A stretch of DNA of 52,383 nucleotides, filler included, from Bipalium vagum (Eukaryota): NCBI GenBank assembly GCA_037834085.1. It is 2 parts of 2 records of this genome, joined end to end, with 100 filler letters (N's around TTAATTAATTAA, not from the genome) between each part and the next. Parts side by side here need not be neighbours in the genome. Positions count along the whole stretch, not along the records: positions 20,858 to 52,383 come from JBBMKC010248075.1; 1 more part is not named here. The stretch is one strand, 5' to 3'. The translations under genes were made by a program, and so were the position numbers. The notes under the pieces are model-generated. The model saw only the letters and a list, made by a program, of their open reading frames with translations. It did no database searches and had not been told where the DNA came from. Positions within the stretch are counted from its first letter, which is position 1; every line of letters starts with the position of its first letter. Of this stretch, positions 1 through 37,259 are shown piece after piece.

Positions 1-787
1 TTTTCAGGAGGAAGAATTTTTGTTTTTTCATAGAGTTTTTCATTAGCGAGAGTCTTTGACTCTCTTGGTAAACCTAATCCTAAAGATATTGGAGGATATA
101 ATCCTTCTAAGCCGAAGGAGACCTTTACTTTCATTATTAATTTTCAAGTTTTTCTCTTAGTGAAGGATTTTGAATATTTTTCATTTCATGAATCATTTCA
201 ACATCTTCAACATGTCTATCTTTTAAATCTGTCAACATATATTTTACATCATGTGTCATTGCTGCTTGATCAACTCGATTTATTGGAATTGAATCTGGTT
301 TTGAAATTGGGAGAATTGATAAATCTTGATTTTCATTATAATTTTCTACTATTTCATTATAGTTTTCTAAACGTTTATCAACATGAGTTCCAGTTCCTGT
401 AAAATTTGTTTATTCAATATTCAAAAATTCAATATTCTTTATCTTCCTTTTCCTTTGTTTCTTAGATTCTATGTTACTCGTTGTCAGGATCTCTTCTTCT
501 TCTACCAATGATATTTCGTCCCGATAGTCCAATTCATTTTGGTTCCACCATTTTCTTTTCCGTGTTGTCTGTTTTCTGGTCATCTTCTTCCGACAATATT
601 TTTTTAACCTGCTTTGCAATGTTACTCATTCTATCTTCGAGAGCTCTGTTCACTATCATTTCAATTCTTTCATCCAAATTTATTGTAGGGTTTCTGTGTA
701 TCTCAGATTCCACGCGGTGCGTTGGTATTTCTGTCTCCTTAATTCTTTTCATTGATCCTAATTGTGAGATAAATTGAAAATTAGTCA

Positions 788-858
788 AGGGATGTAACTC
801 AGCGGCCAGAGCAGTGCATGCGCATGTGAAGGTCCCAGGTTCGAATCCCGGTATCTCT
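788..858 (+). ncRNA. tRNA-Ala-like sequence within the element (probably not a decoding tRNA)
   Basis: AGGGATG/TATCTCT acceptor stem, A-box-like TAACTCAGCGG, B box GGTTCGAATCCC. The anticodon arm is the palindrome CATGCGCATG with no canonical 7-nt loop. Confidence 0.7.
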
Positions 859-1150
859 GTTAACTGCTCGGTCAATCAGTCCAATGACCTTCATTCCTAC
901 CGAATGAAGTTAGTTCAATAGTCAATCAATTCTACGACTGCTCAGTTGCCGGAGGACCAAAAAATCAGCTGCCCTTCAGTCTGTGATATCCCCAACGGAC
1001 GACCTCTTTCTGCGATGACAGCCGGAGCACGATCAATCAGAGTATATTTGCGCGACGCCGATGACCAGGAGGACTAGTCTAGGATCCATGCAGATCCAAA
1101 TATTATCCCTGTACAAAACTTATAAACTTGTTTTTTGAAATAAATCGTTA
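858..1150 (+). mobile_element. Probable solo LTR nested in the 3' end of the tRNA-like core
   Basis: Begins TGTTAAC and ends ...AATAAATCGTTA, a partial match to the expected GTTAACA. Flanked by duplicated (TA)TCTC at 852-857 and 1149-1154. Absent from the other two copies. Confidence 0.55.
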
Positions 1151-1177
1151 TCTCCGATTAATTTTCACTAACACTAA

Positions 1178-2708
1178 TCATGATGTTTTAGGAGATAATG
1201 ATAGTTTTCTTTCTCCCGCTATCTTTCTTCTTGGTTTGTCAACATCTGTGTTTTCACTTGTACTGCTTGCTTCCCAGTTCCAATTTTCGGTCAACTTTGA
1301 TGTTGTTTGCTGTTGTTCGGATGTTGTGTCTATGTCTAGCGTTAGCACGACTGATATTCTTGGTATTTTCATTGTTTCTGTTCGCTTTCCGTCTTCCTGA
1401 TCTTTTTGTTCCTTTTTTTCCTTGTGATAAGGATTTATGATTATTCTTGCTAAATTTTCTAAGCCCGTGGCGATTTCTCTTTCTTGTATAATGGTCTTTG
1501 TTGGAGTACCTTCCTTGGGTCTTTCCAATAAATCTGGTTTCCTTTTCTCTTCCTTCTCTTCTTCCTCATACCATCTGTCCCTAGCATAGACCCATATTCT
1601 TTTAATAATATAAGCATCGGCTGTTGGGATAAATTTGTCTTGCCATTGAGTATTGTCCATACTCTTGTGCTATGGCAGACAGTGGAAATGCTCCATTACT
1701 TCTGTGGGTGATCCGTTTATCTAACCTGGCCAAGGGAATCGTTGCCAGATAGCGGACACCTCTGATCCATGATCGATGTATGGCGAGGTCATCCAGCATA
1801 TCTGGTACGTCGTACCCAACTACTATTTTTCCTTCCAAGTAGTTTTGGACGAGAGTTCTGTTCTGGTACTCGTCCAATTGGCCAAAAACTTTGTTCTCGT
1901 CACTTCCGTGCTCTGATCGATAATTCGATACTAGAGCTCTGGGAGTAATTATAGCTTGGTGGACTAGGCTACCTCCTGGCGTAACTATTGTCACCACCAA
2001 AGGTGCCCTTCGATTAGAGAACCTGGTGATTCCAGTTCTAATGTTTAAAATTAAAACTTTCCTTTCTTGTTCGAGTTGGAAGAGGCTTGGATCCACATAC
2101 GCCTCTTTCTTCTCCCAGGCTCCTAATGGGATTATGGGCCAATTCGGATTTGGATGTTCCCTCGGTTCCCAATCTTCATCGGATTCCCTTATTATATCAA
2201 TAAGCAGATTTCCCGCTGCTATAATGATAACCTCTGGGATAAGAGATCCGGGTAGAACCACTTCAGCATAGCTACTTCCGAGGACCATCAGTCCAACAGT
2301 GATACCTGCTCCTTTCTCAATTATTTAGGCCTGGCTCATGCAGGTAATCTGTAATTTCACTGCGGATCCACAATATTGAGCTAACTTTGTTAGGCTCAAC
2401 CCTAAAATTCCTTTCCTAGTACATACCAGGTGCCTATCTTCTATCCTAGCATGTTTTAATCTATTGGGAATTACTGTTACTCCTTGAAAGTACTTGATTC
2501 TCGTCTTCAGCTGGTTGGTATAATCCAACTTTGCTTTAATATCTTTTTCTTCGGCTTTGCTGATGTTTACCATACAAAGTAATGGTAAATTCAGCTCCAC
2601 CTTCTCTTTAATCCTCAATATTTCCTGTTCGTTCATCAATACGAATGCCGGTAGGGTAATTGTTGCCGGCGGAAGATTTTTTCTGATAATTTCCATAGCT
2701 TTGATCAA
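1178..2708 (-). pseudogene. Extra ORF with a REX4/ISG20-like DEDDh exonuclease fold, catalytic residues degenerate
   Basis: ORFs 2325-2708 and 1602-2288 are in frame across one stop; a frameshift near 1650 leads into 1178-1660. Motif order matches REX4-like proteins: VLILNIRTG (ExoI), VTIVTPGGSLVHQAIITP..VSNYRS..G, YLEGKIVVGYDVPDMLDDL (ExoII), PLSAIAQEYG, PTADAYII (ExoIII). Confidence 0.6.
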
Positions 2709-2955
2709 CTAAAAATAAAAATTAAACGATCATTACTATTTCAAAAATTAGTTTTAAGATCAACCATTTTTTTCATACAAACGCAACCAGCATCTACTGA
2801 TGTTAAACATCTGATAGAATATTACCAAACAATCATTATATAAAATTTGATTTTATCATCATACTTTCATCAACTCCATTATTATTTATTTTTATTTTTA
2901 AAAAATACATTAATTATGAATTATCTATAATTTGACACTAGCTGTAAGGTTATAC

Positions 2956-4286
2956 TTATGCTAGACAACAATGTTCTTCTTCATGTTCCCTGAAGCTGCT
3001 TACATTATAAAAACTTTCTCCTCTTGTCAACTGGTGTCCCAACGGTTCTAATTCTATGCTAACCGGTTGGATATCCTTTGGTAATCTGTTTCTCCATCTT
3101 AAATATTGCTTTCTCTGTCTGCATATCCGGATTTGACAGAACAGGGCTCCTGTTAATCCGCTTACAATTATGATTCCTGTTGTGCCCGTTATTATTACCC
3201 AATTTGATGAATCTTCTTTAATCTGCTGTTTCGTTTTTGATTTCTTTGGTTTCATTGATTTGAGGTCTGGGCGAAATTTATTTTGTTTTTGTTTTCGTTC
3301 TATCTGTTTTATTGTTTCCCTCTGATTCGTGGACGTCCTATTTTCTGTACTTGTCCTTTGTGTCTTGAGCGAAGTTGATGTTGGGTTTCTTGTTGTTGTT
3401 TGGTTCTTGAATATTTGACAACTTGTTTGATTGTTAATAATCGTTGTTCAGTTCTCTTCATTTTCCCAAGTAATTCTCTTTTCCACCGTACTTGCGCTTA
3501 TGAATTCTCCTTTGATTTTATTTTTTGTTACCACTATCACCTTTCTCGTACTTCTTTCATTTCTTTTTGTAGTAACTTCTCTTGTACTTGTTAACGTCTG
3601 TAACCTTTCAGTGCGAATCATAGTCTTTACTGTACTAGTTCTTGGTTTCACGGTACTAGTCGTCAATATTTTTATGGGTGTTTCGTCATAATAGACATAT
3701 CGACATAGATTCGTTTGTTTCTTGCTGACTTCTTTGCATCTATCTCCGAGTGCCTCCACTGTGAATTTTCCACAACAACTGGAATCCATTGGTCCTCCAT
3801 TACCCAATAAACTATGCCAATTTTTTATGGGCAAGTCACCAATTGCACGACTATATTCACTACTCGGCCGATGTAAAATCTGTATTTTCTGCCGATATAA
3901 AATACATATTTGGTTGTTCTTACATATTGTATTAATAGTTGTGCTACATCTGAGCTCTCAGAGCTACTTCTTATTCTTATTATTTGATCTTCTTTGGTGC
4001 TAAATGATGTTTTACACATGTTAGTTCCTGGACTTTTTGCAATAAAACTAGGTTGTACGTTTTTGCATTTGATATATATTCTCCGATCACTACTTGATAT
4101 TGCAATCTTCTTATTTCGAACTCTGACCCCAATTATTTGTCCGTCAACTGTTATAATCATTAATAGAAATAGTGGTAGCCAAAACCATTTGTTCAATTTT
4201 GGCTTTGACACTGCTGCCACTGCTGGTTGTTCCTTAACTGGTTGTCTTGATCGCAATGGATATCTAGAGCCCATTTCTTCTATCAC
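2956..4286 (-). pseudogene. env-like type I membrane protein ORF (frameshifted)
   Basis: Fragments 3825-4286, 3448-3834 and 2956-3255 give, in order: signal-like KWFWLPLFLLMIITVDG, a Cys-containing segment (SSCCGKF..RC..LC), a Thr/Ser-rich stalk, TM helix WVIITGTTGIIIVSGLTGALFC, basic RICRQRK and a short tail. Confidence 0.6.
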
Positions 4287-4289
4287 TTT

Positions 4290-4964
4290 TTAGCATCGGT
4301 TCACGTGAACTATAATTGAGGACTTTCCCCCTCTTTTGGTTTTTAGTTGTAAATTCGTCGGAGTAATTTTTTCGACTATATATGGTCCTCTGAAAGTTCT
4401 TTGAAGCTTCGGTGATTTTCCTTTTTGTGGGTCTGGCGTATCAACCATTACTTTATCTCCGACTTCTATTGAATGAGGTTTCGCACGTTTGTCGTAATGA
4501 CCTTTGTATTTCTCTTGGTTATATTTTATATTCAATCCTGCTCTCTGCCATGCCTTCTGCACTCTCTCGTGCATTATCATTTTATAATCTTCTTCTAAAT
4601 ATTGCGATGCTGGATTAATATATTCCAGATCTACTGGCATGTTATTATCTCTTAGATACATTAGATAAAACTGTGTGGATGGATGTACAGCATTTCTATA
4701 AACAAATAAACACGGCGCTATATGTACATCCCAGTCAGTTTGTCCTTTATTAGTATGCGTTAACAACATCTTTAATAAAGTGCCATTAAACTTTCCTACT
4801 AAGCCATCTGTTTGTGGTCGAAAAGGTGATGTCTTTAATTTTAATATCGCGAACATGAAGCATATTTCTTTTATAACCTCATTCATAAAATTAGTGCCAC
4901 TATCTGTCAGCAACTTTCGTGCTGCTCCGTATCTAAATACTATTTCTTCGACAAATATTTTGGC
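4290..4964 (-). pseudogene. Retroviral-type (Ty3/gypsy) integrase, catalytic core C-terminal half plus GPY/F module, inactivated
   Basis: Reads ...FRYGAARKLLTDSGTNF...KTSPFRPQTDGLVGKFN...WDVHIAPCLFVYRNAVHPST...YDKRAK...VGDKVMV...FRGPYIVEK...VHVNRC. The position of the D-35-E catalytic Glu is Gly (GLVGKFN instead of GLVERFN). Confidence 0.9.
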
Positions 4965-5764
4965 TTATAAATCCTTTCATTATATATCATTAGAATCTGA
5001 TTCTTCAAAATGTCATTAATATTATTTTTATTATTATCAAATTTATCTTCATATGGATATGAAGATTTTCTTTACAATTTAACTTTTTATTAAAATAAAT
5101 ATTACGATCAAAGAATAAATAAATAAGGGTATATATTAAAGATCATTACTTCGATGGTATCATCAACTCTAAATTTTCTAATGATAATGATATTAATGTT
5201 GTTTCTTAGAAAGATTGACATAGGTGAATCCCATAACTTATACTTGTAAAGCATTAAAACTGATTACTTCAAACACTATCAAATATTGTTTCAATAAGAG
5301 ATTTAATTTTGACTGCCAGAAAAGTGAACAACAATCGAGGCTGAAAAGCAAATGTTAATAGAAGTTGATAACAAACTATATGAAGATAATGAATCTACTG
5401 AAACTGAGGAAAATTAATGTTTGGAACTAGAGAAATTTGATGACAAAGAACCATTGAATATATTTTAAAAATGTAATGAATAATCTCAATTTGTATCCGG
5501 TTCAATTAAAGAATTTAACGAATTAAACAGAAATAACAATTGAAGTGAAAGAAGCAATTTGACTGTAATATAACTAATTATTTAATCTATATTTTTGTTC
5601 TTTTGAGCGTATATTAAATTTCTTTGGGCGCAAAAAATTGTGTGCCGATGTCAAGGTTGTACTATATATCAAATAGAAAAAACTAATTTCATCAAAAAAT
5701 TTTAAATAAATGGAGTAAATAATTTTACTTATTTTACCATAAGATGTCTTATTAATTCTGTATA

Positions 5765-6267
5765 CCGTAGATACTCGAATATAAGTCGACCTCGTTTATA
5801 AATAGAGGGGGAGAATGGGAAATTCTGTGAAAAACAGTATGAATCTTATATAAGTCCAGGTAAAAATATATGTCTGTGTAGTTTCCTCTTTCGTACATTT
5901 GGAAAAAATGTCAATCTTTTGATACTTTATTGCAAAATATTCGTGATAATATTTATATTTATATTTACATTTCATTATTGTGTGAGGTGACATGGGCTAT
6001 ATATAAGCGAGTTGTGTGTGACGTGCTAAAAAAAGCTGTGAGAAATTTGAAATAAATTTATCATGCGTAGCACTGTGATGCTGAGAAAAACTGGAAAAAT
6101 ACGAAACATAAATGATAACCAGTATTCAATTATGAACACAAAGTGATACATTGCATAAATACAGCCATTACATTGGTTAAAACTGCTATGACTCTTATAT
6201 AAGTCGACCCTTTTTTTTCATCAAATTTTATAGAAAAAAAACTCGACCTATATTCGAGTATCTACGG
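5765..6267. mobile_element. pogo/Tigger-like MITE
   Basis: TIRs CCGTAGATACTCGAATATAAGTCGA / TCGACCTATATTCGAGTATCTACGG, TA on both sides, internal CTTATATAAGTC repeats near 5845 and 6193, no transposase. Confidence 0.85.
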
Positions 6268-6777
6268 TATATAATAATCGACAAAAGATATTAATCATTA
6301 AATTCATTGATTTCACTCAAAGAAAAACAGAATAAAAAACAAAATTCTCCTGTCCAATGTTTGAAATAAGTTAATTTTATTTCACCTTATCTCTCAATAT
6401 GATAAGTATAATGAGTATTAAAAATGTTTACTCAGTTACTGTGAATTTTTTATCTTATGAACAATAGTATAACAAAGACAAACCAATCCTGTTAGGATAT
6501 TATCATAATCATGTTTATAATTGATAAGAACATCTTAAATATATATTAAATTATCACAAAATACAAATAGATAAATTGAAATAAAAGAAATATAAAAATT
6601 GCGAACAGAAACTACAGTTGTCCAGTTGAAATGATAAAGAAAAATAATAATATCGAAGAAAAGAAACAAATCATTTATTAAAAATAAGTACAAAATATAA
6701 AGATTTAGTACTACAAAAGCTACATAATATTGAAATTTTAATTGATGGTCCCGATAAATCTAATTGATTTTGAAGTG

Positions 6778-9700
6778 CTACATGTCATCAAACTGGAAAT
6801 AAAATGATTTTCAATATTTACTAAATAATATAAAATTAAAAATTATGGATTAAAATTATAGTACTATTTATAAAAGATAAATAATCTAAGAATATTATAT
6901 TTTATAGTATTCTGTAATGTAATTAAAATAAAAGTTCTATTTTTACTTTCAATAATTGAATTCTATCAAAGAAAATAATATTAAAAATTGAAATCGATGT
7001 AGTCGACTTCATTTTAACAAATGTAATTATATTAATAATTTTATTTATCAAAATAAACAGAGTCCAAATTTAAGAAAAAATTAACCGGTTTTAAAATTTT
7101 CATTTATAAAAAAATCCATATCTATAATTAATTTTTGATAATAAATTTAATCAATGTAAATATGCCTATGACGTCTTTAGATAACATACCAAAGCGCTCA
7201 TTTCGTCATCTGAAATCGTTTCCTTGCAACCAGCGATATCGTCTCCATCAAATTCCAAAAGAAATGAATCGATTTCTGATCGAACGGAACTAAATTTTGA
7301 TTCTGTCTCAGATATCAAGTTAATATTGCCTGTTAGTAAAATATGACGTTAAATTCAGTTATTATTATTAATAATGACCTTGAACAATAAACTTCCAAAA
7401 GTCATTTTTGGAACCCATTGATTTAATATCGGTTTTCATTCTCCTCAAATAGGCATTGAAAACTGACACAAAATTATGTTGATCGTTTGAACGTTCGATA
7501 CACTGTTTCCGTAACTCGTACAAGCACAGTACAGCTTTCTCGTAAAACGTATCCTTATACGAATCTCTTATTAACTGCCAAATCCTATCTTCCATAAGTG
7601 ATATGACAGTTTCTGTAGCCGGGTTTTGTTCGAGAAGGGTACGAAAATCGCCAATAGGGTCCAACAATCCGAAGTCTGCTTTTTTATCCAATAATACGCC
7701 GAAATTCAACGAGTCTACGTCTTTTTCTAAGATTTTTTGTCGCTTGCAAGCCCTAAGATAGACAAATAAAAAATTAGATATGAGAAATAGTCCCCAATGT
7801 CTCGATCAAATAGAATTAAATATGTGTAACAAAGCAAAGTCTAAAGTAACCTATAATTCACTTTGGTATAACCTTGAAAGTCTTCAATTTTTTTTAATTG
7901 TCTTATTCTACTTAAAAATATTTAATGGGTGTAAAACGAGAAGCCATCACTAGAATCCCATATCAACTGTAAATTCGGTAGATGATCGACGGTATTTACT
8001 TGGGCTTAAAGCAAAATTTTAGCCGTTTTGACATGGTCTCTTGTTGTGATGTGAAAACCAGCCACTTGTCGAAGATAATAATTCAATTCAATTTTTGCAA
8101 ACGTCATACAGTCATTAAATCAGCACTACTAAACATCAGCTCTACTGTATATATTTCATATGGATCTTGTGTTCAATCATTTTTAATTTTTTAGGATCGA
8201 CTTGTGGCACATTTATCGATTTCAATTTTTGTACCTTTTGATCATGCGACTTAAGATAATACAGAGTTTTCTCGATGACTATTGAGGTAAAGATCACGTT
8301 GATAAAAAGATTTATTTCTGCATTTCGATGTCATATATCACAAAGGAAAAGCAATAAAGTAACTCAACGTATGGGAAAACAGATTCGACACGAAAAATCA
8401 AGAATACACGATTTAAGAAATACATTTCCTACTCTTCTTTTTGAAGTTTCTGTCTTGCCATTCTATTTATTTATAGTTCAATTTTTTGTAAAAATATTTT
8501 TAATACATTAAAACCGTAAAATCGAAGGAAACTCTGAACTTTTTTCATGGAAATCTTTACTTTTGGTTTCGGAAGTTTGTGACTGAAAGGATTGAAATTT
8601 TTCCTCTCAATCTTACTGATAATACATCTGATTCAAAGTTTTAAATTCAAGATTCTTCGACATACGTATGAAACAAGTCAGCAATTCTCTGAACACAACT
8701 AGCTTCAACACAACACCCCAATGCCAAATCATCATGTAACTTTTGGAGATTATTATTTTTTTGAATTCTCATGTTAAATATTTTAAAGTCATTTTCTTAT
8801 AATAAGTGATCGATTTTATCAATATTTCCAACAGTTTTCGATATCGACATTGTTTCTGGCTTTAAGACATCACAGGCTTATTTTTAGCGTATCAGAACGT
8901 TTGTTGCGTTTTAAACAGTAAAATTAGTAAAAATCTTCATTCAATAATTCTTATGCATTAATAAAGTTATATAAGCAATTGAGTTAAAAAAACGAGTACA
9001 AAAGTTTGAAAGAAAATAAATTCCATGTGTAGAAAGATTGCGGCAACACATGGTAAAAGTTGAACATCAAGTATAAATTTTTATTGGTGTTGGTATTTCT
9101 TGATGATAATTATCCAAAAACAAAATTAAATTATTGATTATTTTGTTCCAATAAATTATAATTTTCTAAATTATTCTGTCAAATGCTGGAAAATATAAAA
9201 ATGAAAATTAACGGCGAAGAGAGATTGGAAAACATTCACAAAGAATTATAAAACAGTCTTACGTAGTGTCTGGGGAAAAAATTTCAGCTGCAGTTTTCTT
9301 TTTACCAGAATCTGATTTTGCCTTCAATGCAAATTGTTTGTTAATCTCATCTATAAGAGGTTGAATTGAATCGATTTTATCTTTCGGTGGTTTCAACTGA
9401 GATAACAAAGTTTCACTGCATTCTGGTAAACTGATACCTGGATTCAAACATCGAAATTGAGCACACTGGTAAAAATATTGAATGACAGGATTTCTCATTT
9501 TGGTGGTCTTGTACAATTCTTTTTTGTCCTCGTTATTATCTGAAGGTCTAAAGAGAGAACAACGAACGAATTACCATAGGATTTCTTTCTCATGTACTTC
9601 TTATTAAATATTTATCATTCCAAAATCTATTAGACGTTTTCATTAAATTTACGACTATTAGTGGAAAATAGTCCGTTTAATATGAAGTAGAATGATTGAA

Positions 9701-12700: not shown

Positions 12701-15401
12701 TATTCAGTTCAAAAACTACAGAAATATGTTGAAATGATTCTGCACCACTTTTATATAAAGAATTTTTTGTATTTGAAGTTCCACAAAACACCAACGCAAG
12801 CTCATCTTTACTCTCCGAAAATAACTATACATTCTATTAATCACATTTGTAGTAAGAAGTTGTTAACCTTCTTTTGAATGAGGGACTCAATTGCTAACAC
12901 CGCAGAATTGTTCCCCATATGCTCTCCAACATCAAGAACTATGGATATGTGTTCCTGGAAATTATGTAACAAATTAAAAATAAAGTAAAATTAAATTAAA
13001 GTATTAAATACAAATAAGCAAGAAAAATGAATAAATTAATCAAATGAAAAATTCAAATTTAAAAATTATAAATATTATATAATAAAACAATTGAATAATA
13101 ATTGAAACTTTCAAATTTGATATTATTTATTATAAGTTAAAAATAAACAATATTAATATAGTTAAAAGTTGTCTAAATTTTATTTGTAATAAATTTAAGA
13201 TTTTTGTTTTTTATTTTAATTTTTTAGTAATTAATAATTAAATTTTATAAGTTTTAATTATTTTTATTTTTCTAATAAAATTAATAAACATTGAGAATAC
13301 TCTTAAATTTATTTTTGGAAATAATTTAATTATGATAAACCATTATTATTTTTATCTAATCATACTAATTAGTGTAATTATTATATTGGTTAATCAGCAT
13401 TTTTAATGGCAAAAGAAACAATATTGTCATGTAGTAATTTTTTAGCAGCTTTAGTTTATGTTATTGTGATACTTACGTTTCCATTTTCCATGTTTTTTTG
13501 CTTAAAAGTAACAATGGAATATGAAAGAGCTGTTATATTTCGACTAGGAAGAACTAAATCCAAAACGAAACCAGAAGGCCCAGGATTAATTTTCATTTTG
13601 CCATGCCTTGAAGAAATAAAAATTGTTGATATGAGAACTTTGACATTTAACATACCTCCACAAGAAATACTAACAAAAGATTCAGTAACTATTAGTGTGG
13701 ATGCCGTTGTTTATTATCGTATCTTTAACGCAATATTATCAGTAACTAATGTAGAAGATGTGGACAGATCAACCAGAATTTTAGCTCAAACGACATTACG
13801 CAATGCACTTGGAACAAAGAATTTAGCAGATATTTTGTTGGATCGAGATGAGTTGTCTCACATAATGCAATCCACCTTAGATGAAGCTACAAATGTTTGG
13901 GGCGTTGCTGTAGAAAGAGTTGAGATAAAAGACGTAAGACTTCCACAACAATTACAAAGAGCTATGGCTGCTGAAGCTGAAGCTACAAGAGAAGCTAAGG
14001 CTAAATTTATTGCTGCTGAAGGTGAAAAGATGTCATCATATGCTTTAAAAGATGCCGCTGATCAATTGATGAAAAGTCCAATAGCAATGAAACTAAGATA
14101 TATTCAAAGTCTTGCTTCAATTTCTGGAGAAAAGAATTCAATGATATTATTTCCAGTTTCATTAGATTTTTATAATATTGATTAACTTATTAAAAAAATA
14201 TTTAATACACCATTATTTTTCATTTGCATGAAATTTATATTATTCATAACATGTTTTATTACTTTGTTATTTTATAAATAAAGAATTTTATTTGTGAAAT
14301 TTGGCTTGTATTATTAATTTAATATAAAGCCGTACTCAAAATTGCATTGAATAATTTATTAATTTTAATTAAATTAACATTCACAAAAAATTAATGTTAT
14401 TTTGTAAAATTGTAATTTTAAAACAAATTTGAAATCCTATTTCACTCTTAAAAGTCTATTAAATACTAAAAAATAAAATATATGGTAATATTTTATTTAA
14501 TTTTGAGATTTCAGAAAATTAAAAATTTAAGTGATAGACGAAAATTGAGTAATTTAAATAAATACAGTAATTTTTACTTAGAATTATGAAACAAGAATTT
14601 AACAAAATCTTGACTCAATTAGTAAAACAAAAATATTAACATAAAACTCTTAAGAAAGTACCAATGATAATAATATATTTGAAATATAAATTATATTTAT
14701 TATTAGAAAAATTAAAGGAAAAGTATATATATAAATAGGAAACCAGGAATAATTTGTCAAGTCCTTTCACAAATATCTTAACATAATAATTTTCATTCGT
14801 TCAGAACAGTGTTTAAAGTTAAATAGTTTGGATAAATAATTTTAAAAAATATTAAAATAATATATAAAGAGATCCTTTAAAAATTCATTTAACGCTCACT
14901 TATACATTTATAAATTATAAAAAATTTAGATAAAGATAAAGATTCTCTTATTTATACTATTTAAGATGTTCCTTTTTGTTAAGTGCTTTAATGAAAATTT
15001 ATTAAAAATTATACCATGCATTTAGACAACATTATTAATATCCACGCAAAAGTGAAATACTTAGATTTTCTTGAAAAATGTGCTTATTTTTCTTTTAATT
15101 TTTAAAAATCCATGTATTAAGCAGCTTTGTAAAATAAAAAGCATTAAAAATGTGGATAATAGAGAAAATATATCATAAGGCTATTATATGTAAAAATTTT
15201 ATGATCATTCTTAATACTATATGAATTCCTGGTTCATTCGATTTGGAGGTATCAGTAAACTCATTCGCTCCAAATAATAGATGATTAGAAATTTACTTTT
15301 AACGAGTGGTCGGAAAGTTGTAGCACAAAAATAAACAGATTCTACTAAGTCACTTCTTTAATATTTATTTTAATATTTTTTACCTTTGTTGTGTAATACA
15401 T
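6778..15401 (-). CDS. XRCC5: Ku80 (X-ray repair cross-complementing protein 5), multi-exon
   Basis: GT-AG spliced model: MYYTTK (15384-15401) | EHISIVLDVG..IQKK (12868-12954) | LFSESKDELALVFCGT.. | ..GRKRIILFSNF.. | ..DIIKG|FKYGKSIIP.. | ..MVAIVRRVYSKASSPRLGLLIP.. | ..LVYCEIAFGEDIRTYCFPNL..AVDSLIDHLML | ..NPVIQYFYQC.. (about 9260-9548) | ..DPIGDFRTLL..FYEKAVLCLYELRKQCI..FWKFIV | ..DDEMSAL | FDDM* (6778-6792). This covers the vWA, core and C-terminal domains. The first 18-nt exon is the least certain part. Confidence 0.93.
7921..8700 (-). mobile_element. Highly decayed mariner remnant in a Ku80 intron
   Basis: Minus-strand WFSHHNKRPC resembles mariner LHHDNARPH; many stops; boundaries approximate. 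Confidence 0.35.
13406..14185 (+). CDS. Stomatin / band 7 (SPFH) family protein, intronless, 259 aa
   Basis: Hydrophobic hairpin ILTFPFSMFFCLK, then EYERAVIFRLGR, GPGLIFILPC, PPQEILTKDSVTISVDAVVYYRI, AQTTLRNALG, WGVAVERVEIKDVRLPQQLQRAMAAEAEATREAKAK, LRYIQSL. AATAAA near 14277. Confidence 0.95.
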   Translation: MAKETILSCSNFLAALVYVIVILTFPFSMFFCLKVTMEYERAVIFRLGRTKSKTKPEGPGLIFILPCLEEIKIVDMRTLTFNIPPQEILTKDSVTISVDAVVYYRIFNAILSVTNVEDVDRSTRILAQTTLRNALGTKNLADILLDRDELSHIMQSTLDEATNVWGVAVERVEIKDVRLPQQLQRAMAAEAEATREAKAKFIAAEGEKMSSYALKDAADQLMKSPIAMKLRYIQSLASISGEKNSMILFPVSLDFYNID

Positions 15402-17736: not shown

Positions 17737-18542
17737 CATGGTGCGACACAAAAATAATGAGACTGATGTTGGAAGTTTTATTTTATCACAAAGTATGTAC
17801 AACTATTTATTGTCTCCTTCAAAATATGATTCATCCCAATTCACAAACATCTGCAAGTGCTCTTTCCACCGTTCAAAACAATGCTGCAGGTCGCCAATCC
17901 TGAGATTGTGTAATAGCTCTGGCGTCCTAGTCTGTACTTTTTCAATACTTGCAAAATGCACACCTTTAAGAGCCGATTTTATTTTTGGGAATAGAAAAAA
18001 ATCACAAGGTGCTAAATCAGGAGAGTATGGAAGATGTTCAAGTTCAGTTATATTTTTGCTGCTCAAATAAAGCTTGACTGATAACGCTTTGTGGGGTGGA
18101 GCGTTGTCATGGTTCAAAATCAACCAGTTTTTTCACAACACAGGACGCTTCCTACTGACATTGTCTCGCAATCCTTTCAAAACTTCTTTATAATAATGTT
18201 GGTTAACGGTCTGACCACTGGGAACCCATTCGGTCATAATGATACCTTGGATATCAAAGAAAATAATAAGCATTATCTTGAACGTGGAATGAGTCATGCT
18301 GCTTTTTTCATTTTTGGCAATGATGGTGATTTACAATGCATGAATTGACGTTTAGTTTCTGGATCATACTGAAATATCCACGTCTCATCACCCGTAATAA
18401 TGTTATTTAAAAAACTATTATCTTCATCAATTCGTTCCAAGATATGAGAACAAACATTGGCTCTGTTTTGTCTTTGTTCGTATGACAAGACATTAGGAAC
18501 AAATTTTGCACAAACTTTCTTCATGCCTAAGGAATGCGTCAT
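17737..18542 (-). mobile_element. mariner (DD34D) transposon, 5'-truncated pseudogene
   Basis: KKVCAKFVP, IITGDETWIFQYDPETKRQ, HDNAPPH, LPYSPDLAPCDFFLFPKIK, YFEGD. One TIR (TA|CATGGTGCGACACAAAAATAATGAGACT) at 17735. Confidence 0.92.
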
Positions 18543-19344
18543 AGAGGTAAGACTAAGAGTATTGAAAACCCTGGTTTTTATAAATTAATTTGTAAAATGT
18601 TCATTTATATTAGTAATATCATATTTATATTTGATATATATCATCTAATATATTTATTTCATAATTATACTGTGGAGTATTTGGGCATATTTGAATTTAA
18701 AATTTTTCTAAAGTGTTTAAAATCTAATATTTATTTTAAATGTTATGGCTTAAAATTTTTACGTGTTTAAAAATTTTCTGGCATTATATTGGTTTGTTAG
18801 AAAACTGAATTTTTAAAAATATATTATTATGTTTAAAAACATTACTAAATTTTAAATCATATCAGTTTACTGCTATTAAAAATATTATTAAAATGATTAA
18901 AAAACGATCAACGTTTTTTTATTTCATTTTAACTAAATTTTATTTCAGCAAAAAACATTGAAAATTTTAATTAGATTATTGATAGGTTAATATAGTTTAC
19001 AAATCAGAAAAGCTTGCTGGAAAAGTGAGCATAATGTTTTTAAAAACAAACACTCACGGTTAAGTAGTTTCCGGTTCTTTCGACTTCTTAATAAGGGGCT
19101 TAACAACGTATCAGTTTTTCCAAGATTAAAATGTTTTTCAATCGTACTGTTACCGTAAATATTCTACCACCGCCTCTTTCAAAACCACAAAAATTTCAAC
19201 TTCTTTCAATATAATGACTATGGTGATATTCCTGTTTTTAGAATTTGGAATTGTCAATTCCCACAATTTTTCTTTTTCTGCCTTGCTTTTCCAATTATAT
19301 AAAAATCGAAAAAATGTCATTTCATCTAAAGTAAATATTTTCCG

Positions 19345-26386: not shown

Positions 26387-27190
26387 TTAAATGTTTGTCT
26401 CTGCTCTGGCTATGAATTTTTTCCAGATAATATGGGTATTAATGATCGTCCTGGCTGCACATTTTTCCATAATTGAATTAATTTCTGCTATTTTAAATCC
26501 AAATGCTCCGAGTGTTTGGTAATTTGATGGGATCCACAATCCCCAGGCTCCGATTACAAATGTTCTGATATCATAGTACCATGTTCTTCCGAGCTCTGAT
26601 TGAGCTTCGTCCAACAAAGTCTGATATTTTTGCTTGTTTGCTTCGTCATTGTCCCTGATAGAAATCTCTGATTCAAAGGGGACTTTGACGTCTATAATTA
26701 GTTATCTTTTAAGCCTCTGATTCACTAATTGTATATCAGGAATTAAGTTTTTTTCCTGAAAATATTCCTTTCTTTTCAACGTGTATTTCCCATTCCTTTT
26801 TAAGTGTGGACAACAAATCAACTAAGATATCGCGTACATCATTGTGACTTTTTCGTACCATAGGCATTATGTAGATGCAGCTGTATAAGGCGTGTGAGGC
26901 AGTTTCTTCTTTCCCATAGCAATTTCTACAGTTGCCGGCCTTTTCAATTTTTTATTGGTTGACTAAATCATTAGTCCGATACTTCTGAATAAAGTACCAT
27001 TCATCTGTACTGTGCAGGTGCCCGTTCATCAGTTTTTTGTTTAGGCGACCATTTAACACAATTGTTTTTGACAGTATTCCTGCGCTGCACAAGTTAGCCC
27101 AATTCTCAAACATCTTTTCCTCGATTTCCTCATTTAAGAACGGACATAGCAGATGAGTTGCGAATTTGTCAATTTTACTTTAGAAACTTT
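26387..27190 (-). mobile_element. Non-LTR retrotransposon 3' fragment with restriction-like endonuclease (R2/NeSL-group type)
   Basis: CCHC knuckle CRNCYGKEETASHALYSC, then SHNDV, the PD-(D/E)xK motif PDIQL..IIDVKVPFE, KQKYQ and FVIGAWGLW; contains a stop and a frameshift; no RT visible. Confidence 0.85.
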
Positions 27191-35387: not shown

Positions 35388-36497
35388 TATAAACATTAAC
35401 GGGAAAAGTTTTAAAAAATCATCACCATAAATAATTTCAGTTGTGTTCTTATTAAAGTCATGAAGATGTTCTCATTTCAAATTGAGAAAGTTCAGGTTAT
35501 AATTATTCTTTGAAAGTGAACTTCTTAAATATTCTCTTGGAACAACCCAGAAACCTTGTTAAGAACATTATGTAAATTTGGAACTGACAACAAATCTTAA
35601 ACTTGGGTGCTATATGATTTTAAAAAGGAAAGTTAAAGTAAAATATATAATCTGTAACATGTCCTTAATTTTTGAGATAAAAACGGAATGAACTTTCGTA
35701 TTAATTCAATATTTACAAATGTGAACATCAAATATTTTAGTGATTAATAAATTGATTTTCTCATGTCACAAATCTGATCTAAAATATTATATAAAAAATA
35801 GATCCAAAATATGCCAAATATTGAAAGAAGATTGGAATAATTATTTTTCAAAATGACAAATAGAAATAATTTTAATAATAAAAATAAATAATTTATATAA
35901 ATAAAAATCTTAAACAGAGTAAAAAAAAAAACAGATAAATTACAAAAAATATTTTTAATGGTGAATTTCACATAATTATTTTGGCATAACTTCAAGAAAA
36001 CTTTAATTATATTTTTTATTCTGAAAATATCTTCAAAAATGAACACCTGGTTCGTCAAATTTCTATTTTACACTGGTTTTGGAACGATCATATGTGTGAA
36101 AAATATTCATTTATCTATTTGTGAAACCCTCTAACGAGGGATATATTTTTTATTTTTTCTGAATATACAGTATATTATTACATAACCAAAAATTCTGTCC
36201 CTTAAAAATATTTTTTGTAATAAAGTATATTTGAACCTTCAAATTTCCTTATCTTTTTAGCTTAGGCTTAAAAAATACTCCTATTAAACCCACCCCGTTG
36301 TTTTTTCATATATTTATTCAACACAATTTCGTTCTTTACAAAAAACTTAAAACAACAAAAACAAAAAAGCACATGTGTATTAATTAAATACATATGTAAA
36401 ATTATTTTCTACAACGTTAGACCATTTACAAGGTAATTTCATGATGCCATCTACATAACAATTTAATGAATGAATCGAAAAATTATTGGATGGCAAT

Positions 36498-36611
36498 TGT
36501 GAGATAAATTGAAAATTAATCGGGGGATGTAGCTCAGTGGTCAGAGCAGTCCATGCGCATGTGAAGGTTCCGGTTCGAATTCCGGTATCTCACATTAATT
36601 TTCAACTAACA
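36498..36611 (+). mobile_element. tRNA-containing mini-LTR-like element, copy 2 (uninterrupted, 114 bp)
   Basis: TGTGAG...CTAACA with perfect TSD GCAAT (36493-36497, 36612-36616). A box TAGCTCAGTGG, B box GGTTCGAATTCC. TTGAAAATTAAT/ATTAATTTTCAA inverted repeat encloses the tRNA-like core (about 36523-36592). Confidence 0.9.
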
Positions 36612-37259
36612 GCAATATTTACAGATTCATAAGAAACAAACTTTGTACCGACGAAGAAATGTTGCATTATCGGCAACAATAACTAAAAATTCTAAGTCTA
36701 AATCGGTAATCTTCTGGACTATCTTCTTTTAGGAATACAGTTGTGCACTACCCTGATGAATAATAACTCCATTTCTGTTTGCCAAAGCTGTTCTGGAGAA
36801 AACAGTAGATATTGGATATTTTCCAATTCGAATTCTATAAGCCTTACGTGTTATGCGGTGTTATCAAGAATGAGTAAAACAGTGGTTATTTTATAAGTTT
36901 CTCTTGTACGATTCATACTAGCTTCAATTGATCTTCCTATACTTTCCCAAAATTTCAAATTTTTATGATAACCTTCACTTTCTTTTGATATTAAATTTTC
37001 TTTTAATTTTTATGGAATGAATTAAATAGTATCAACTTTTAATATTTCAAAGTTACTAGAAAAAAATAATCACCGAATATAGTCTAAAACCAAGATCACG
37101 AAAAATTGATGATGGTCTTCAAATAACGTTCAGCGGTGAGGTCGGCACCAGCAAGAATGGGCAGCTGTTTTAGGCAATTCCTAAAATGCCATATCCAAAT
37201 ATCTCAACTAGTCTTCATTGACAAACAAAATGAAAATAATACATGATATATTATTTTTC

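Follow-up and report, generated by a model that had tools for sequence, protein, structure and literature searches.

How does a unit of only 114 bp, with a tRNA relic set between TG...CA ends, come to be dispersed through the genome of the flatworm Bipalium vagum (assembly GCA_037834085.1)? The window (the whole stretch of DNA that was analysed, 52,383 nucleotides with a GC content of 28%) holds three copies, all on the + strand, each opening with TGTGAGAT and closing with ACTAACA:

763..1173, + strand: copy 1, 411 bp, flanked by CTAAT/CTAAT, within a degraded Gypsy-like element (sequence, BLASTN)
36498..36611, + strand: copy 2, the 114-bp unit, TGT...ACA, a putative solo LTR (sequence, BLASTN, sharp contig junctions at both ends)
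51096..51570, + strand: copy 3, 475 bp, flanked by GAAAT/GACAT (sequence, BLASTN)

The first 70-95 bases and the last 18-39 bases are common to all three. Compared with copy 2, copy 1 is identical at 66/74 and 19/20 positions, and copy 3 at 55/66 positions in its 5' part and 35/39 in its 3' part, with BLASTN E values of 1e-24 for copy 1 and of 5e-12 and 7e-8 for the two halves of copy 3. No fourth copy was found in the window, either by BLASTN or by mismatch scans with the 5' end, the A-box arm, the B box and the 3' end; the mismatch scan of the window returned a lone B-box-like match at 9434. A sequence-only reading of this stretch had described dispersed copies with TGT at the start and ACA at the end, and all three were confirmed at these positions. 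Its description of a 114-bp family holds for copy 2, whereas copies 1 and 3 are longer by about 297 and 363 bp, respectively.

A search of public sequencing runs for the element returned one matching run, X1, and no RNA run among the matches listed. This run is possibly from the same sample as the window, and adds copies rather than independent support. Among its 1,835,864 contigs, 2,903 match the 231-base stretch around copy 2 (window positions 36440-36670) with at least 80% likeness. The unique left flank has a summed depth of 27, the element itself reaches 285,638 and the repeated right flank lies at 135-500; this measure was rejected as a copy number because it does not give one. Loose contig ends lie before 36498 (n=190), 36497 (n=67) and 36496 (n=77) and behind 36611 (n=122), as counted from 6 of 137 rows, among the rows listed. 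Since the left flanks of all three copies end in AAT, the 5' edge is not fixed by the window alone; it was set by the contigs. The three 5' rows listed comprise 334 junction contigs, and 190 of these diverge right before 36498; a boundary that includes the shared upstream AAT is ruled out by these counts. Beyond the junctions, the diverging flanks (median length 255) agree at only 0.43-0.45 and are unrelated, which also disposes of the shared extended flanks that would have marked a segmental duplication. The junctions certainly represent hundreds of insertion sites, and thousands of copies of the 114-bp unit are likely. The unit is therefore a high-copy family with sharp ends and unrelated flanks, neither a SINE nor a segmental duplication. 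Pattern scans of metagenome contigs with the 5' part and with the 3' part gave 0 loci each, as did a scan of viral contigs with the 5' part.

Each copy is flanked by a direct repeat at a length of five bases (CTAAT/CTAAT, 5/5; GCAAT/GCAAT, 5/5; GAAAT/GACAT, 4/5), and nothing comparable was seen at any other target-site duplication (TSD) length from 2 to 12. By the window's own 5-mers, a 5/5 match has an empirical chance of 0.0030 and a match of at least 4/5 one of 0.034, and the joint chance is about 1e-6. The 5-bp TSD proposed earlier for each copy is thereby upheld, and at copy 2 it is backed by an empty paralog:

36493..36497, + strand: left TSD GCAAT of copy 2 (flank test, empty paralog, contig skipping 119 bases)
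36612..36616, + strand: right TSD GCAAT of copy 2 (flank test, empty paralog)
39734..39810, no strand assigned: empty paralogous site, a mariner relic with homology to the left and right flanks of copy 2 and without exactly 119 bases

Copy 2 inserted into a mariner relic that is paralogous to the empty one. The two flanks map to the empty paralog at offsets of 3262 (left) and 3143 (right), and the difference of 119 equals 114 + 5. With a TSD of 5 assumed, 14/21 positions of the left flank match the empty paralog, as against 3-8 for the ten other lengths from 0 to 10, and the 11-mer that anchors the alignment occurs in the window only at those two places. The 5-bp length at copy 2 is in this way confirmed independently of the flanking 5-mers. 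The relic at 39734-39810, which has QDNARPH and PYSSDITPPDYHL motifs in its frame, is presumably mariner on the strength of these motifs. Mariner relics lie on the minus strand at 17803-18584 and 39600-40200 as well as in the flanks of 36498-36611, and those at 39600-40200 and beside copy 2 are the paralogs used for the empty-site test. One X1 contig joins 36492 to 36612 and skips the same 119 bases, with a short side of 21 letters and only 3 letters that fit both sides; because its cover starts where the mariner homology starts, this contig most likely represents a further paralog of that mariner repeat and not an empty allele. The pile-up of junctions at 36496 (77/144, versus 26% expected) hints at a preference for AT at the final two target positions, which agrees with the AAT ending of all three TSDs in the window, although end effects of the aligner are also possible.

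Blunt TG...CA ends with a constant 5-bp TSD are the footprint of an integrase or transposase, and target-primed insertion is excluded, as the sequence-only reading had maintained. This bears on the view that the copies are a tRNA-derived SINE, processed tRNA pseudogenes or segmental duplications, a view to which a tRNA relic that lies near the 5' end and carries A and B boxes lends some appeal. Such elements are nevertheless hard to reconcile with ends that are blunt and fixed in hundreds of contigs with unrelated flanks, with the lack of a tail (noted earlier and borne out by the blunt 3' end in X1 contigs), with the constancy of the TSD, and with a 25-nt leader upstream of the tRNA that is predicted to be partly absent from a Pol III transcript. 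This explanation is largely refuted and highly improbable.

The interior of copy 2 runs from TG through the 25-nt leader, the tRNA relic and an 18-nt trailer with a T4 run to CA. The parts of this copy and of the other two are as follows:

36523..36593, + strand: tRNA relic with an Ala-type acceptor stem containing G3.U70 and a degenerate anticodon arm (Rfam RF00005, 23.6 bits, E 0.0088)
36530..36540, + strand: predicted Pol III A box, TAGCTCAGTGG (sequence; Helenus box A motif)
36572..36583, + strand: predicted Pol III B box, GGTTCGAATTCC (sequence; Helenus box B motif)
36509..36520, + strand: 5' arm of a subterminal inverted repeat, 12/12 pairs with 36594-36605
36594..36605, + strand: 3' arm of the repeat, including the T4 run at 36599-36602 (pairing)
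788-859: tRNA relic of copy 1 (Rfam)
51107-51119 / 51552-51564: inverted repeat of copy 3, 13/13 pairs

The tRNA model of Rfam, with a cut-off of 29, scores copy 1 at 29.4 bits and copy 2 at 23.6 bits and leaves the anticodon arm of both unmatched, while ARAGORN reports 0 tRNA genes. A functional tRNA-Ala gene is ruled out by these two results. The alanine identity pair of tRNA, G3.U70, is kept in the acceptor stems of copies 1 and 2. The tRNA-Ala-like core with A and B boxes described earlier thus stands as far as the boxes and the Ala-type acceptor stem are concerned, but it is a relic and not a gene. The T4 run is, judging from sequence, a predicted Pol III terminator.

Both this run and the subterminal inverted repeat of 12-13 bp are features beyond the earlier description. 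The element ends (TGTGA and TGTTA) form 5/6 terminal pairs, followed by a 4-base offset and then the 12-13 pairs. In the predicted fold of copy 2, the inverted repeat stacks on the acceptor stem, with a folding z-score of -2.4 (2/200 shuffles as good) that could be explained by the tRNA core alone. In copy 3 one A-T pair has changed to G-C on both arms, and a G.T pair is present in copy 1; with only three copies, a two-sided stem change cannot be taken as selection. Position 36519 is G in 208,077/215,766 of the X1 depth, with no listed change at its partner, T at 36595, which suggests that the G.T pair of copy 1 is the common form across the family.

With these termini, the TSD length, the dispersal, the A and B boxes, the degenerate anticodon arm and the T4 run all observed, the layout matches that of the shortest Helenus LTRs, and the best reading therefore takes the 114-bp unit as the solo LTR of a Pol III-promoter TRIM of Helenus type, to which we assign a probability of roughly 70%. 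Under this model, a short two-LTR parent (LTR, PBS, spacer, PPT, LTR) would be transcribed by Pol III from the tRNA boxes, and packaging and reverse transcription of its RNA would fall to an autonomous LTR retrotransposon with an integrase of 5-bp stagger. Integrases with this stagger occur in BEL and in some Gypsy lineages. Recombination between the LTRs would then leave one LTR with the TSD kept. For a single unit, Pol III transcription is predicted to begin within the leader and to terminate at the T4 run, so that the RNA would be missing both termini and a lone unit could not copy itself via RNA; a two-LTR parent would solve this problem, as in Cassandra.

The earlier proposal of a solo LTR from a Pol III TRIM is thus retained as the best reading on layout and TSD, but the search did not turn up the defining form, in which two LTRs come with a PBS and a PPT. 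None of the three window copies has a second LTR, a PBS or a PPT beside it, as expected for solo LTRs. Among the 7 joints listed for the 2,903 contigs, 0 connect the 3' end back to the 5' end; the X1 contigs are filtered and may break within a spacer, and this count is modest evidence against a common intact two-LTR form.

Some of the same observations fit a MITE equally well, namely the inverted repeat of 12-13 bp and single contigs that have lost the core but retain both ends (36514 joined to 36594, and 36518 to 36572). The unit might accordingly move alone as DNA, its imperfect 18-bp inverted ends recognised by a DDE integrase-type transposase (Ginger2/TDD-like or of another TGT...ACA family) and its tRNA relic being captured cargo. 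The ends fit the Ginger motif TGTNR on both strands, the A-T to G-C change in copy 3 affects both arms, the internal length varies (114, 411, 475), and no two-LTR form appears in the window or among the listed contig joints; TDD-4 and TDD-5 give 5-bp TSDs, and a 252-bp non-autonomous Ginger2 exists (PMC2836005). However, Ginger TIRs are 40-297 bp long and animal Ginger TSDs are 4 bp (PMC2836005), whereas the terminal match here extends over only 5/6 bases before the 4-base offset. Given G at 36519 with no listed change at T 36595, the DNA repeat of the common form is moreover imperfect. In LTRs, short inverted ends are usual (PMC3601003), no transposase with the same ends occurs in the window, and conserved A and B boxes would be needless for a DNA element. 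Movement of the unit alone, as DNA, is possible, if unlikely. A distinctly unlikely variant holds that there is no two-LTR parent at all, and that an LTR-sized hairpin with a tRNA promoter is mobilised by an integrase-type enzyme with a 5-bp stagger; it would link Pol III TRIMs to MITEs through thousands of flatworm copies, and the lack of any such parent would amount to a new mode of mobility.

The two longer copies raise a separate point, as each carries an extra segment:

864..1145, + strand: extra GC-richer segment of copy 1, between two 16-nt family stretches
51169..51531, + strand: extra segment of copy 3, 363 bases, which splits the tRNA relic between the A and B boxes

On the solo-LTR reading, other DNA would have entered copies 1 and 3 after these had become solo LTRs. 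The extra segment of copy 1 (about 297 bases, GC 44%) is bordered at 849-863 and 1146-1161 by the 16-nt family stretch, 13/16 identical, a similarity that 74/2,994 random windows score as well. An AATAAA lies about 30 bases before the end of copy 1. Either a LINE-type insertion nested in copy 1 or a long LTR form that yields the short form by deletion would be compatible with the segment. Under the latter, the copies would be solo LTRs left by a longer LTR retrotransposon, either autonomous or non-autonomous, with the tRNA relic in its LTR; copy 1 (411 bp) would represent the long LTR, from which deletion between the 16-nt repeats would yield the 114-bp form. In agreement with this, the stretch 858-1173 starts with TGTTA, ends with TAACA and includes the AATAAA, X1 depth is about 5x higher in the 5' half than at the 3' end, and junction contigs number 334 (5') versus 122 (3') among the rows listed. 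The asymmetry is possibly technical, however, as a 1-base deletion and mismatches in copy 2 leave a short alignable 3' piece; the 16-nt border repeat with its A-rich end fits a nested LINE-type insertion as well, and the segment of copy 1 has no second copy in the window. We regard a longer LTR parent as improbable. At the borders of the copy 3 segment, a candidate TSD was rejected, with 580/3000 random windows scoring as well.

The degraded Gypsy-like element that hosts copy 1 occupies 1-4990 of the window on the minus strand. It includes a Gypsy-type integrase with a GPY motif (4290-4964), which belongs to this relic, and nothing ties it to the 114-bp family. The relic also contains an env-like set of frames at 2956-4289 with a signal-like stretch, a Cys-rich part, a Thr-rich part and a transmembrane-like segment, a frame at 1602-2324 with no Pfam match, which we take to be exonuclease-like, and a parvovirus-type PLA2-like piece at 137-409 (PF08398, E 9.6e-5, just under the cut-off). 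This env/exonuclease/PLA2-like cargo is unusual for a Gypsy element.

Other repeats in the window include an AT-rich element at 48563-49564 (219-bp inverted repeats, 95% complementary and 564 bp apart), at which no obvious TSD was seen, and two MITE-like units at 5761-6271 and 49855-50082 with inverted ends of 29 bp and 34 bp. A minus-strand frame at 26387-26701 has no Pfam support and, as we presume, resembles the terminal, restriction-like endonuclease part of a site-specific non-LTR element. Among host genes, Ku80, stomatin and a PP2C-like protein are present. In a tree of 36 of the 120 listed matches, the PP2C-like protein has a long branch but falls with Macrostomum and trematodes (98/90 support), which makes a flatworm host probable; a tree for stomatin (38 of 120 listed matches, the named taxa plus the nearest unnamed ones) was uninformative. 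The stomatin-like open frame (13394-14185, + strand) runs for 263 codons without a stop; its nearest match is 84% and the named ones are at most about 67%, among the matches listed. It is possibly a retrocopy or a lineage-specific paralog.

If the solo-LTR reading is true, tRNA-promoter TRIMs reach a seventh animal phylum, and the helper integrase, with its 5-bp stagger, differs from the Gypsy helpers proposed for animal Helenus; such a difference would support repeated independent origins or helper switching. The family also supplies this genome with tRNA look-alikes and Pol III promoter boxes in large numbers, and tRNA annotation can be confused by these.

Of the described systems, Helenus is the closest in layout. 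These elements are TRIMs (TRIMp3) with tRNA-derived LTRs (Kojima 2024, PMC10886601), 104-323 bp long according to Table S1, and some families are known only as solo LTRs. Like the 114-bp unit, they combine TG...CA ends with a tRNA relic that is conserved at boxes A (TRGCY..YGG) and B (GGTTC), a degenerate anticodon and a T run before the end, as well as a fixed short TSD and common solo LTRs; the same order of TG, short leader, tRNA relic, T run and CA is visible by eye in the available sequences of Helenus-9_PSt (112 bp), Helenus-4_PiIm (117 bp) and Helenus-2_TeGr (104 bp). Pol III transcription is unvalidated for Helenus too (PMC10886601). TSDs of Helenus are 4 bp in six animal phyla and 5 bp in fungi and a plant (PMC10886601), as the sequence-only reading had correctly stated for animals. 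In Table S1 the value is 4 or n.d. for all animal families and 5 for fungi and the plant; 4 bp, as against 5 bp here, describes the animal branch and does not define the group. The paper names Copia as a helper with a 5-bp stagger and proposes Gypsy helpers for animal Helenus (PMC10886601), while the available text of the Sinbad paper gives no TSD length for BEL (PMC554778). No flatworm appears in a term search of the main text of Kojima 2024 or in Table S1. In the Helenus data file, 4/6 of the 5' motifs of the element have 0 matches and the other 2 occur only at 3 unrelated fungal places. Of the 6 papers found to use the term TRIMp3, Kojima 2024 alone deals with elements, judging by the listing, and no tRNA-bearing LTR-like family of flatworms was found among the titles listed in the literature searched, a scope that lies outside Repbase, Dfam and subscription papers. 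On the best reading, the element works like a Helenus LTR; membership awaits a two-LTR form, which is absent from the window.

The termini agree with this placement, as the 3' end CTAACA fits the LTR integrase motif YNYAACA in 6/7 letters and the Sire motif CYAACA (PMC3601003), and a curation guide files short unknown repeats with a TGT start and a 4-6-bp TSD as solo LTRs, with the end printed there as CAC (PMC8969392). Ginger1 and Ginger2/TDD (Bao 2010, PMC2836005) share TGTNR termini (here TGTGA and TGTTA), an integrase-type footprint and short non-autonomous derivatives with the unit, but they have TIRs of 40-297 bp, and no tRNA core is mentioned in the available text. Animal Ginger TSDs are 4 bp (CCGG/CCGT, or within RTATAY), and only Dictyostelium TDD has 5 bp (PMC2836005). 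Both counts speak against Ginger membership, neither TIRs of about 40 bp or more nor a 4-bp animal TSD being present, and the suggestion of a Ginger-type element is accordingly weak.

For a 5-bp TSD in an animal TRIM, precedent is provided by Ajax and by ta-TRIM of Taenia. Ajax, with 5-bp TSDs in an animal, and Cassandra both place a small-RNA Pol III promoter inside a short LTR (PMC10886601), but their promoters derive from 5S rRNA and not from tRNA, and their hosts are nemerteans and plants, respectively. The ta-TRIMs of taeniid cestodes (Koziol 2015, PMC4558846) are flatworm TRIMs with many TSD-flanked solo LTRs, the TSD being 5 bp in Taenia solium (8/8) and 4 bp in Echinococcus multilocularis (52/57); the likeness is by description only, and the available text has no mention of polymerase III. 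The candidate new family proposed earlier is therefore new in its host phylum and a differing variant, whereas its kind is already known and its TSD length has these animal precedents. From the Helenus elements described so far it differs in the new phylum, in a TSD of 5 bp instead of the 4 bp of animals, and in its subterminal inverted repeat of 12-13 bp, which extends the acceptor stem.
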